IMG/VR virus record: IMGVR_UViG_3300034062_006701 | Strand: one strand, 5' to 3' | Source: a virus | Lineage: Duplodnaviria > Caudoviricetes | Length of the DNA: 64,000 nucleotides | Shown here: one piece after another, positions 1,602-60,609 of the stretch | Layout: each line of letters opens with the position of its first letter | Position numbering within the stretch: the stretch's first letter is position 1 | Notes under the pieces: model-generated | The model's database searches: none | What the model was told of the DNA's origin: nothing | What the model saw: the letters and a program-made list of their open reading frames with translations, nothing else | Program-made: the position numbers and the translations under genes

Positions 1602-1856
1602 TCAGCTACTAACACTACGAGAGAAATTCTTGACCGCAGACCTTGCACCATTAGGCTCATAGTACATCTTAGTATTCTTAAAGGATTGCTGAGACATAAT
1701 TTGAATTTCAGCGCCTGTCTTATGAGAATATACCATTCTTCCAAGTCTTGGTGTACCGAGCTTATGTTTGTTAGCACAGGTAGAACATGCTACCGTTGTA
1801 GGTAAGATCTCTAATCTCTCCTGTTCAATAGCACCTGAACACAATCTACAGATCAT
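1602..1856 (-). CDS. TraR/DksA-family C4 zinc-finger protein
   Basis: CRLC...IEQERLEILPTT..CSTC matches the DksA/TraR C4 finger. Confidence 0.8.
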   Translation of the reverse strand: MICRLCSGAIEQERLEILPTTVACSTCANKHKLGTPRLGRMVYSHKTGAEIQIMSQQSFKNTKMYYEPNGARSAVKNFSRSVSS

Positions 1857-7150: not shown

Positions 7151-7459
7151 TTACCAACCACCATAATACCTATTTTTAATAGCTCTTAATTTAGCATGCA
7201 ATTGCTTGAGAATTTTATCATGTGCTACTCTACCTTGAGGGTCTACTGTTTCAAAATAATCTTCTCTTCGCTTATCTGATTCAATCTGTTTAATTTTCTC
7301 TTTAAGTTCTTTTGATTGTGCTAATAGTTTAGCAGCTTCCTCATCTGTTATATTAGGGTTTCTCAATGAGAGTGTCTGACTATTTCCCATAATACTCTCA
7401 ACTAATTTATCAAATTTCATATAATATTATTTATCTATGTTACTTTGAAAGAGATTTAA
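7128..7459. repeat. 23-bp direct repeat ATGTTACTTTGAAAGAGATTTAA flanking gene 7151..7420
   Basis: copies at 7128-7150 and 7437-7459. Confidence 0.9.
7151..7420 (-). CDS. late protein with MKFDKLVESIM N-terminus
   Basis: TAAATA promoter; 5' end shared with 7456..7911. Confidence 0.8.
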   Translation of the reverse strand: MKFDKLVESIMGNSQTLSLRNPNITDEEAAKLLAQSKELKEKIKQIESDKRREDYFETVDPQGRVAHDKILKQLHAKLRAIKNRYYGGW

Positions 7460-7911: not shown

Positions 7912-7943
7912 ATAATATTATTTAATCAATTTGTTTTTTTTAG

Positions 7944-50177: not shown

Positions 50178-50251
50178 TGGTAGGAGATGACGGTAACGCT
50201 CCGCCGAATCCTGAGTGTAAATCAGGTGTTTTACTTTTAAACTAATCTCCC
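50178..50251 (-). tRNA. tRNA-Val(UAC), non-canonical T-loop AGCGTTA
   Basis: CCTGA-TT-TAC-AC-TCAGG; CCA encoded. Confidence 0.85.
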
Positions 50252-53838: not shown

Positions 53839-54603
53839 TCATGTTAAAGTACCTATTGAGGCTTGAGACTGTCTCTCATTTAATATTCTTTTATAGATGG
53901 TTTTAAGCACCGGCGCCGTATTAAAATCTAACCAAAGCATCTTATACCCTTTATCGTCGCAGTATTTTTCTAACGCCAGTTGCTTATAAGGTATAGTTCT
54001 ATTATAAGGGTGCTCTGATTGTATATTCCACTTTTGCTTTACCTCGACAATGCACGTTTTACTATCTATCCTACAAATAAAATCAGGATTAAATGTTCGA
54101 TGTGACCCGTCTTCCCAATAATTTAAAATACTTATAAATCGCTCAATACGATTCGCACCTAATTCATCAATGAGATATACAATACCAGCTTTTTCTAAAT
54201 TTGAATCAACATCTATTACCACATCTTTATAATTAAATGTTTCTCTTAATGTAGAGAAATTACCGTGCTCTTTGAGATAATTTTGCCTATTAATAGAACG
54301 TAAATAGCTCGCACATACCTTACTACATGTCTTTTTTTCGTAACCAGCTTGTGCTATAAAAGTATCACCACACGTTACACAAACACAATCGATGTACGTC
54401 CTTGGCCTATATCCCGGTGATCCTGGAATATTTCGCTTTCTACCTTTGAGGGACCGAGAGATTTTTAATTTTGTTGCTTCTGAGCGCACTCCCCTGTTAT
54501 TAGCGCAATTGCGCGAACAATATAATAAAGGTTTTGTTTTACGAACAACCCTATCCTTACGCCAATCATCAACTATTTCTTCTTTACAAGTTATACATTT
54601 CAT
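53839..54603 (-). CDS. free-standing PD-(D/E)xK (TnsA-N-like) endonuclease with zinc fingers and a NUMOD3-like motif
   Basis: YCSRNC, RSEATKLKISRSLKG, CVTC/CSKVC, FNPDF...IVEVK. Confidence 0.8.
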   Translation of the reverse strand: MKCITCKEEIVDDWRKDRVVRKTKPLLYCSRNCANNRGVRSEATKLKISRSLKGRKRNIPGSPGYRPRTYIDCVCVTCGDTFIAQAGYEKKTCSKVCASYLRSINRQNYLKEHGNFSTLRETFNYKDVVIDVDSNLEKAGIVYLIDELGANRIERFISILNYWEDGSHRTFNPDFICRIDSKTCIVEVKQKWNIQSEHPYNRTIPYKQLALEKYCDDKGYKMLWLDFNTAPVLKTIYKRILNERQSQASIGTLT

Positions 54604-54652
54604 AAGATTTGAACCTATAATTATTTAGTCTCTAGGTTCGAGTCCTAAAGAG

Positions 54653-54907
54653 CTCCGGGGGCAGGATTTGAACCTGCGACCAATCGGTTACATCTACCCT
54701 TAAGTTTTAATTCCTTAAGGAATGGACTTTGTCTTCATCCTGTTAGGATGTGTCGTGTAAAGTCTCTACACTTGCCCGGTCTTTCGACCTGCTAGCTCGG
54801 CGTTAGCATTTCAGCTTTCACCGACTTAGCGACATTTTTCAATCAACATTACTGCTGAAAGCTGCAACTTAATACAGCCGACCGCTCTACCGCTGAGCTA
54901 CCCCGGA
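54653..54907 (-). tRNA. tRNA-Asn(GUU) split by a group I intron (exons 54907-54874 and 54690-54653)
   Basis: joined exons give a canonical cloverleaf with GTCGG-CT-GT/T-AA-CCGAT and G73. Confidence 0.92.
54691..54873 (-). ncRNA. 183-nt group I intron
   Basis: P1 with U.G at the 5' splice site, P10, P3, P7 core (AGAGACU / AAGACAAAGUCC), P8, P9, terminal G. Confidence 0.9.
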
Positions 54908-54959: not shown

Positions 54960-55054
54960 TGGAAGTGGGTATGGGAATCGAACCCATGCTCGTCCCTCAT
55001 CTAGGGAACACAGATTATAAGTCTGTCGGTGCTATCCAGTTACACTAACCCACC
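54960..55054 (-). tRNA. tRNA with UAU (Ile) anticodon and a long variable arm
   Basis: ACAGA-CT-TAT-AA-TCTGT; ~22-nt arm with TCCCT/AGGGA stem; U73; CCA. Confidence 0.82.
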
Positions 55055-59816: not shown

Positions 59817-60563
59817 TTATTTAAGAGACATTATATCTTCTTTTTTCCACACAATCAAGCTTTCCTTAAATTGATTCCATTTACATCGATCAAGCTCTGT
59901 TTCAAATCCTTTTACTTCCAAATAACCACCAAGTTCTTCTACCCAAAAATCAGGTGTATAATAAGCATCTCTACCGTTCAAGTGAACATATTTAAACCGT
60001 TGCGTATTTCTCTTCCAATTATAATTTTTACTATCTAACCATTTTGCAACTCTAAGCTCCCACGTGCCATCCACAGTTATATCACCAGCGATTGGACTCA
60101 AATACGTGTATTTTTTGCATCTACCGGCTTTATTGTCCCACCCTTCAGCGTGTCTACGTAATGCGCTTTGTCTAATAAGTTCTTTAGATTTTTCTGTATG
60201 TTTACGACCAGTATATACCGTCCTACCGGTAATATAGTTTTCACGCTTAGTATTTAAAAGTTTTTGAACGCGTGGATCTTCAGCTGTTAAACCCTTGTTC
60301 CACGCCGTGCTTCCTTTTTGTCTGCCTGCATTAGGTGACCGCTTTCCAGGTATTCTATTGGGATTTAATTTACATCTTTTAATATGTACGATAAGCGATC
60401 CCTTGTTAAGAATTTCCTTATTACAGAAATTACACTTTGTATCATTATATTGTGCATATAGCCTTTTACCGCACTGTTTACCATTTAAATGACGCTGTAT
60501 CGTTGATAAAGATATTTTTTTATTGCAACCAGGGCAATCTGTGTAGTTTCTTTTAATTTTCAC
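59817..60563 (-). CDS. free-standing PD-(D/E)xK endonuclease with zinc fingers and a NUMOD3-like motif
   Basis: CPGC, CNFC, GRKHTEKSKELIR, DGTWE, YTPDF...YLEVKG; GTG start 6 nt after TAAATA. Confidence 0.85.
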   Translation of the reverse strand: MKIKRNYTDCPGCNKKISLSTIQRHLNGKQCGKRLYAQYNDTKCNFCNKEILNKGSLIVHIKRCKLNPNRIPGKRSPNAGRQKGSTAWNKGLTAEDPRVQKLLNTKRENYITGRTVYTGRKHTEKSKELIRQSALRRHAEGWDNKAGRCKKYTYLSPIAGDITVDGTWELRVAKWLDSKNYNWKRNTQRFKYVHLNGRDAYYTPDFWVEELGGYLEVKGFETELDRCKWNQFKESLIVWKKEDIMSLK

Positions 60564-60609
60564 CAAAGATATTTAGTCTAGACGGTCACTTTTAACCACT
60601 CTTACAAAC

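Follow-up and report, generated by a model that had tools for sequence, protein, structure and literature searches.

A TnsA-like nuclease cassette beside an intron-split tRNA-Asn gene in a phage tRNA array

Phages T4 and T6 carry segB, a free-standing mobile nuclease gene that lies in a tRNA array (PMC2988022, PMC13096335) and has a leader with a hairpin and a late-promoter-like element (PMC2988022). For I-TevI, segB, and mobE, read-through RNA is silenced by a hairpin whereas late RNA is not, and the I-TevI operator, which resembles the homing site, overlaps the late promoter (PMC2988022). In another arrangement, represented by the psbA intron of S-PM2 with F-CphI and by I-TevIII with mobE, an intron with no open reading frame (ORF) or a defunct one adjoins a free-standing nuclease gene at co-conversion distance (PMC6083498, PMC2790892, PMC3984707). 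Here, we describe a locus that resembles both arrangements. It lies in IMG/VR record IMGVR_UViG_3300034062_006701, a virus of the Caudoviricetes (Duplodnaviria), of which we analyzed a stretch of 64,000 nucleotides (nt), called the window below. On the minus strand, exon 1 of a tRNA-Asn(GUU) gene, an intron, exon 2, a 49-nt leader, and an ORF of 254 amino acids (aa) follow one another in this order. The nuclease ORF lies outside any intron or intein and is therefore a free-standing gene. We consider it probable that the gene and its leader form a homing-type endonuclease cassette that lodges at the edges of tRNA-Asn genes, with the intron as a separate element and with leader control in the style of T4.

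The locus differs in several respects from each of its closest counterparts. SegB is a GIY-YIG enzyme, and its homologues in phage tRNA clusters are not biased toward any isotype (PMC13096335); the window protein, in contrast, has a TnsA-like PD-(D/E)xK domain, and its family prefers tRNA-Asn and directly abuts the tRNA. F-CphI has an Endo VII motif and mobE belongs to the HNH class, with cleavage of the intron site demonstrated, whereas the window pair is known from sequence and its two members are independently distributed. I-Ssp6803I, from an intron of the Synechocystis tRNA-fMet gene (structure 2OST, Pfam family PDDEXK_5), resembles the window protein in being a PD-(D/E)xK enzyme tied to the anticodon region of a tRNA, and members of its family occur inside phage tRNA-Asn introns related to that of the window. 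Unlike them, the window protein is not a member of this family, is free-standing, and has zinc modules. The catalytic domain shares an E/D/ExK-type active site with TnsA of Tn7 (1T0F, 1F1Z), but it has no TnsB/C/D context, and N-terminal zinc modules replace the C-terminal domain of TnsA. The locus would add an uncharacterized protein family to the free-standing homing endonucleases, and it points to tRNA-Asn as a shared landing site for unrelated selfish elements, namely, the window family and the intron nucleases of the I-Ssp6803I type.

The nuclease and its movement as a cassette

A preliminary description of the locus had called the protein a PD-(D/E)xK/NUMOD3-type endonuclease, and its residues and fold bear out the first half of that name. 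Four residues (E137, D174, E187, and K189, in the motifs DSxLExA, NPDF, and VEVK) are invariant in an alignment of 47 sequences. The AF2 model of the window protein (pLDDT 90.6) contains the restriction-endonuclease-like alpha/beta core. Its best structural match is TnsA (VIA-align Z 7.5 over 128 residues; Foldseek probability 1.0), with Hjc, Vsr, XisH-like proteins, and others at Z 5 to 7, and all top Foldseek matches of the C-terminal half are PD-(D/E)xK nucleases. The likeness to TnsA is structural only, as the Pfam model Tn7_TnsA-like_N (PF08722) gave no match even at E up to 1. The NUMOD3 half of the name was not confirmed, given that Pfam PF07460 scored 14.3 bits at residues 41 to 55 (E 0.04), below its gathering cut-off of 20.4. 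The N-terminal part contains two Cys4 sets, C3/C6/C29/C33 (at least 90% conserved) and C75/C78/C93/C97 (invariant), the first of which is weakly like a zinc ribbon of the eL24/TRASH type (PDB sequence search, E 0.087).

Searches of Pfam and PHROGs returned no significant family for the protein; a weak match to a PHROG named "HNH endonuclease" covers the zinc-rich N-terminus only. The PDDEXK_5/I-Ssp6803I family likewise gave no Pfam match, and hhalign assigned a probability of 0.1% to a comparison with a phage intron-encoded member. A database search found 49 homologous clusters, all of them metagenomic and none annotated, and the Atlas neighbors of the window protein are phage clusters that have TnsA-like domains and, in some of them, NUMOD3. 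By its modeled fold and its conserved residues, the protein is a nuclease of the PD-(D/E)xK superfamily, predicted to cleave DNA in a metal-dependent manner. Judging by the alignments and searches, it belongs to an unannotated family that combines zinc modules with a TnsA-like PD-(D/E)xK domain and has no Pfam model.

We gathered 29 distinct gene copies of this family from viral contigs, metagenomes, and assemblies. The loci and contigs collected for comparison carry L-numbers (L001, etc.), and their layouts are listed with the features of the window in Table 1. A tRNA-Asn gene adjoins 24 of the 29 copies, lying upstream, downstream, on both sides, or convergent, and these comparative data link the family to tRNA-Asn genes. 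In the window, 49 nt separate the discriminator base (54653) from the ATG, in agreement with the spacing of about 50 nt described before. The family occurs in uncultured, mostly freshwater phages; the INPHARED phage genomes contained no relative of the window locus. A scan of viral contigs with the single protein gave no matches, but an alignment-based scan did find the family. One contig holds two copies: besides the copy that follows a tRNA-Asn, a second, very divergent paralogue (L003:7377-8048) follows a 91-nt long-arm tRNA-Asp.

Comparisons between related genomes show that the leader and the ORF form a discrete mobile cassette. L010, in which the intron is present, and L031, which has an ordinary 75-nt tRNA-Asn, carry nucleases that are near-identical on the protein tree. 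Their DNA is 91% identical over 758 nt, a block that comprises the leader and the ORF only and runs from 7 to 10 nt past the 3' end of tRNA-Asn to the stop codon; the tRNA-Asn genes and downstream tRNAs of the two loci do not align. L035, in turn, is 90% identical to L010 upstream, and their homology extends no further than the final base of the tRNA-Asn, such that L035 is without the cassette, yet has an identical intron-bearing tRNA-Asn. Presence and absence of the cassette in these related genomes are thus separated by sharp boundaries. The tRNA-Asn and intron of L010 and L035 form a tract of 275 nt with no changes, compared with 6 changes over the 73 nt of the neighboring tRNA-Pro and with flanks that are about 90% identical; the tract resembles the product of a recent conversion, with selection on the RNA contributing as well. 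In addition, tRNA-Asn copies or 5' tRNA fragments flank the nuclease gene in L032, L041, L001, L012, and L040, the last three of which show a layout of fragment plus replacement. The comparative tie to tRNA-Asn and the movement of the cassette support the earlier view that this is a free-standing nuclease of the homing-endonuclease type. Natural before-and-after pairs are available for the cassette (L010/L031/L035) and for the intron (L010/L031), making the target and the co-conversion model directly testable.

Table 1. Features of the window locus and of the loci collected for comparison
Feature	Position or loci	Strand	Remarks
tRNA-Asn(GUU) exon 1	54874..54907	-	34 nt
ORF-less group I intron	54691..54873	-	183 nt, between anticodon positions 35 and 36
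tRNA-Asn(GUU) exon 2	54653..54690	-	38 nt, CCA not encoded
Leader, belongs to mobile cassette	54604..54652	-	49 nt; inside the L010/L031 homology block
5' arm, antisense T-loop-like copy	54633..54647	-	plus strand reads TAGGTTCGAGTCCTA
TAAATA, promoter-like, loop of inverted repeat	54622..54627	-	promoter function suggested by distribution
3' arm, sense T-loop-like copy	54603..54617	-	holds AGGTTCAAATC (= tRNA-Asn T-arm); ends at A of ATG
Nuclease ORF	53839..54603	-	254 aa, ATG 54603-54601; family start M-K/N-C conserved
Zinc module 1	54505..54597	-	C3, C6, C29, C33; CxxC-x22-CxxxC
NUMOD3-like helix	54439..54483	-	residues 41-55; sub-threshold PF07460; helix 42-53 in model
Zinc module 2	54313..54381	-	C75, C78, C93, C97, invariant
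TnsA-like PD-(D/E)xK catalytic domain	53872..54243	-	residues 121-244; E137, D174, E187, K189
Intron-bearing tRNA-Asn upstream of nuclease	window, L028, L029, L010		
Intron-bearing tRNA-Asn convergent with nuclease	L018, L036		
Ordinary tRNA-Asn upstream of nuclease	L031, L016, L004, L023, L025		
Long-arm tRNA-Asn upstream of nuclease	L011, L014, L017, L003, L039		
tRNA-Asn on both sides of nuclease	L032, L041		
tRNA-Asn downstream of nuclease	L001, L012, L038, L040, L021, L024		often a 5' tRNA fragment upstream
PDDEXK_5 ORFs in phage tRNA-Asn introns	L131:238-678, L151:1316-1765, L168:1812-2297		
Intron-split suppressor-type tRNAs, anticodon CTA	L122, L128, L152, L154, L160		
Intron-split suppressor-type tRNAs, anticodon TTA	L113, L123, L126, L139, L144		
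Long class I tRNAs	L003:7063-7145, 7179-7269; L010:1048-1134; L017:1081-1165; L024:230-318, 1604-1688		
Long class I tRNAs, further	L026:1470-1554; L031:5482-5566; L001:3586-3669		

The intron and its relation to the nuclease

The tRNA-Asn gene of the window is split by a genuine group I intron without an ORF. Both ARAGORN and an Rfam search of 15 kb (E up to 1) missed the split gene; in an Rfam search of 301 nt, Intron_gpI (RF00028) matched with 44.9 bits (E 1.6e-10), under its gathering score of 50. In P1, the exon 1 segment GCUGU is paired with GCAGC in the intron, which places a U.G pair at the 5' splice site, and the terminal (omega) G of the intron is at 54691, which gives the splice-site signature of -1 U and omega G at an anticodon-loop site. 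An alignment with three relatives contains 81 pairs, 21 of which show compensatory change, with the acceptor, anticodon, and T stems of the tRNA included. We set the length of the intron at 183 nt because intron-less homologues, found on lake-metagenome contigs from other organisms, have 54690 and 54874 directly joined in their tRNA-Asn genes. Because the flanks of these contigs are GC-rich, they are not intron-less variants of the window phage, and the contigs of four lake metagenomes contained no phage variant without the intron or without the nuclease. The same lakes contain an abundant tRNA-Asn (depth up to 566), without an intron and with GC-rich flanks, to which the phage exons are closely similar; it is possibly a bacterial gene and a clue to the host.

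Compared with other group I introns of anticodon loops, the window copy is very compact, phage-borne, and ORF-less. Across seven lineages of tRNA-Asn, the intron is 75 to 88% identical, versus 44 to 76% for the exons, which fits horizontal spread, with constraint on the ribozyme core contributing too. An 18-nt core of the intron is present in 69 bacterial and 64 viral contigs and identifies group I introns that split many tRNAs in the anticodon loop, phage suppressor tRNAs included; a 25-mer of the intron had no match in bacterial genomes, but the shorter 18-mer core did match. We also observed group I introns of the same family that split suppressor-type tRNAs (CUA and UUA anticodons) in many viral contigs, and an uninterrupted CUA tRNA in L038:718-792.

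The preliminary description proposed collaborative homing, in which an ORF-less intron spreads with the adjacent free-standing nuclease, and it named the co-occurrence of intron and nuclease across related genomes as a check. An ORF-less intron does stand beside a family nuclease in the window, L028, L029, L010, L018, and L036. Their distribution, however, is not that of an obligate pair. At least 16 nuclease lineages adjoin tRNA-Asn genes without an intron, seven or so of which are of ordinary length. A search that used the intron by itself found four close viral relatives, three without an adjacent nuclease (L033, L034, and L035) and one with a convergent nuclease (L036), and when intron-bearing phage tRNA-Asn loci were found independently of the nuclease, a family nuclease was adjacent in one of nine. 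The intron and the nuclease are thus separate travelers with an optional association, and no fixed pair. For an obligate pair, this independent occurrence in relatives is the very outcome that the preliminary description had named as a refutation.

In phages, longer tRNA-Asn introns (about 600 nt) encode a protein of Pfam family PDDEXK_5 that matches the I-Ssp6803I structure 2OST. The position of its ORF corresponds to the site of a GAAA-capped mini-hairpin in the window intron. Given that related introns carry their own nuclease of the I-Ssp6803I type, the window intron need not rely on the family nuclease to spread, and the PDDEXK_5 nucleases are a plausible other source of mobility for it. 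Collaborative homing is possible but optional, as a facultative partnership that may involve co-conversion and protection.

The leader repeats and TAAATA

The sequence elements described for the leader are present. The 11-mer GATTTGAACCT occurs at 54606-54616 in the leader and at 54665-54675 in the tRNA T-arm, and TAAATA reads on the minus strand at 54627-54622. A second T-loop-like element, TAGGTTCGAGTCCTA, lies on the plus strand at 54633-54647, one base from the position first given. The exact motif GGTTCRARTC occurs seven times in the 64 kb, five times as a tRNA T-loop and twice as one of the leader elements. A T-loop-like hexamer was found at most 46 nt from the start in 15 of 20 family leaders, compared with 11% of random stretches from the same loci (p of about 3e-11 as run; 1 of the 15, in L021, is really the T-arm of an adjacent tRNA-Val). 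The leader repeat is more than chance. We considered and rejected the idea that the T-arm copy is a leftover of the adjacent tRNA: the motif travels with the cassette, and in most loci it mismatches the T-arm of the tRNA beside it.

How these elements are arranged differs from what had been proposed. A T-arm-like hairpin of 5 bp that takes in the AU of the start codon has a computed energy of -1.0 kcal/mol and is absent from the minimum-energy fold, and the start AUG of the window leader is mostly unpaired (0.13 to 0.16). The two T-loop-like elements instead form a single imperfect inverted repeat of 15 nt, with arms that are 80% complementary, a computed energy of -10.1 kcal/mol, and TAAATA in the loop, although this repeat is not the minimum-energy fold of the window leader and its 5' arm is alternatively able to pair with the tRNA T-arm. 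The hairpin had been placed downstream of a late promoter; that reading is inverted, as the promoter-like TAAATA lies inside the repeat, an arrangement like that of T4 (PMC2988022). Because of this position, a transcript from TAAATA would leave out the 5' arm: in fold computations, transcripts started 5 to 8 nt past TAAATA were unstructured. The usual layout in the family is an antisense copy near -40, then TAAATA, then a sense copy near -13. TAAATA occupies the loop of the repeat in the window, L028, L029, L011, L004, L022, and L016, and strong leader hairpins were computed for L004, L011, L014, and L016 (z -3.1 to -6.8). Overall, the sequence facts of the preliminary description and its view of a mobile homing-type nuclease tied to tRNA-Asn stood, whereas the NUMOD3 call and the start-codon hairpin with the regulation built on it were not confirmed, and collaborative homing with the intron is reduced to an optional association.

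Elsewhere in the window, 29 of the 39 minus-strand copies of TAAATA are intergenic, and many lie 4 to 21 nt before a start codon. The spacing to the ATG is 4 to 7 nt at the motif starts 62031, 59514, 49222, 24862, 7924, and 7433 (minus strand). If TAAATA is a promoter, the mRNAs of these genes would be leaderless or nearly so. The copies at 7924 and 7433 are followed by the same 40 nt, suggestive of a gene start that was duplicated.

Competing explanations and the tRNA arrays

The tRNAs beside the nucleases bear on where the enzyme might act. Lengths of at least 80 nt are over-represented among the class I tRNAs directly upstream of family nucleases (non-redundant loci, raw Fisher p 7e-4). With counts corrected by hand for intron-bearing genes skipped by ARAGORN, an insertion is present in about 10 of 17 adjacent tRNAs versus 9 of about 106 others; counted as independent events, the adjacent insertions number about 6 to 7 of 13. 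A hairpin in the variable region accounts for the added length, in tRNA-Asn (four lineages, with a fifth in L039), tRNA-Asp, and tRNA-Lys. In this small sample, which was retrieved via the nuclease, the association of nuclease adjacency with insertions is a lead, one that would fit a target spanning the anticodon to the T-arm. If the link holds, it would explain many of the oddly long class I tRNAs of these phages. Many class I tRNAs in the collected loci (Trp, Asp, Cys, Thr, Lys, Pro, Ala, and Gln) reach 80 to 91 nt through an extra variable-region hairpin, and those next to family nucleases are over-represented.

On the reading that we favor, a cassette of the gene and its leader of about 50 nt lodges at the edges of tRNA-Asn genes in the tRNA arrays of freshwater phages. 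During mixed infection, the enzyme would cut the DNA of a phage without the cassette, within its tRNA-Asn gene or beside it, and recombinational repair would copy the cassette together with nearby markers, which amounts to intron-less homing as by the Seg and Mob enzymes of T4. The 183-nt intron would be another mobile element of the same tRNA-Asn gene, with a distribution of its own; where the two occur together, it is close enough to the cassette (about 90 nt) for easy co-conversion and may also protect the tRNA-Asn of its carrier. The most likely role of the leader is that read-through transcripts of the tRNA array fold over the ribosome-binding region, leaving TAAATA-started transcripts to be translated. 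Alternatively, binding of the nuclease to the T-loop-like motifs of the leader may provide autoregulation. Several observations weigh against parts of this reading. Five family copies (the second copy of L003, L005, L020, L022, and L026) have no adjoining tRNA-Asn. The window leader folds no better than its shuffles (z -1.2), and its hairpin is weak. The motifs of the L040 leader are direct repeats and several leaders hold a single copy, which is more in keeping with a protein-binding site than with an RNA hairpin. Finally, it is the distribution of TAAATA that suggests a promoter.

Strict collaborative homing would have the nuclease cut at or near position 35/36 of an intron-less tRNA-Asn gene, with an intron that immunizes its carrier and a functional pair that spreads together. 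We regard this as doubtful, even though the intron has no ORF and occupies the same site in tRNA-Asn genes that are less alike than the intron itself (44 to 76% versus 75 to 88%), the pair occurs in both a tandem layout (the window, L028, L029, and L010) and a convergent one (L018 and L036), and precedents exist in F-CphI with the psbA intron (PMC6083498) and in mobE with I-TevIII (PMC2790892). The 5' tRNA fragments of L001, L012, and L040 stop near the junction of the D-arm and the anticodon stem, and therefore a break inside the tRNA is likely; the enrichment for insertions between anticodon and T-arm just upstream of nucleases points the same way. Against a strict pair stand the at least 16 nuclease lineages beside intron-less tRNA-Asn genes, the near identity of the nucleases in intron-less L031 and intron-bearing L010, the single adjacent nuclease among nine intron-bearing phage loci, and the PDDEXK_5 nucleases of related introns, which could move ORF-less copies in trans. 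The comparison of L010 with L035 shows, moreover, that the cassette entered or left an intron-bearing background, which is difficult to reconcile with an intron that prevents cleavage. Less likely still is that the enzyme recognizes T-arm-like DNA and, in the manner of I-TevI, cuts tRNA-Asn some distance away, in the anticodon/variable region. The insertions (the group I intron or the variable-loop hairpin arms of tRNA-Asn, tRNA-Asp, and tRNA-Lys upstream of nucleases) would then be immunity devices of the carrier, and the leader motifs would be operators that mimic the target and serve autorepression. If so, homing endonucleases would shape the structure of phage tRNAs.

The two remaining alternatives dispense with selfish homing. 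A domesticated role like that ascribed to SegB, which amplifies a tRNA segment to evade Septu and is widespread beside tRNAs (PMC13096335), would have breaks in the array drive duplication or exchange of tRNAs and thereby escape from host defenses that cut tRNAs. Divergent duplicate tRNA-Asn genes do flank the nuclease gene in L032 (82% alike, with a common 20-nt tail) and L041, and in L039 it is preceded by a tandem of two long-arm tRNA-Asn genes. We nevertheless find this role improbable, as the window family is almost confined to tRNA-Asn whereas SegB has no isotype preference (PMC13096335), and as the presence/absence differences between near-identical phages look selfish. It is very improbable that the protein processes or repairs the tRNA precursors of the array, for example, by recognizing T-arm-like RNA, without any DNA homing. 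Its structural matches do include tRNA-splicing endonucleases (Z 5.2 to 6.2), and T-loop-like motifs are present in its own leader, but TnsA is the best match and the invariant metal-binding D-E-K triad is typical of DNA nucleases. Splicing endonucleases do not use such a triad. Gain and loss in the form of a cassette between close relatives would also be unexpected for a housekeeping processing enzyme.

The tRNA arrays of the window and its relatives contain other features beside this cassette. Directly upstream of the split tRNA-Asn gene, at 54960-55054 (minus strand), lies a 95-nt tRNA with a UAU anticodon and a variable arm that is long and class II-like; a related phage locus has a 94-nt counterpart (L038:2575-2668). 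Rfam also reports a tRNA (52 bits) at 50181-50251 (minus strand) that ARAGORN does not list. Between tRNA-Cys and tRNA-Ser, at 59817-60566 (minus strand), an ORF of 249 aa with a zinc-finger-like N-terminus matches the PHROG families "endonuclease" and "Holliday junction resolvase" (E 4e-14). By BLASTP it is not a paralogue of the window nuclease, and it probably represents a further nuclease cassette of the array, unrelated to the first. In the array of the closest relative, an HNH endonuclease gene directly follows a tRNA-Val (L028:1229-1819), and several nuclease families therefore populate these arrays.

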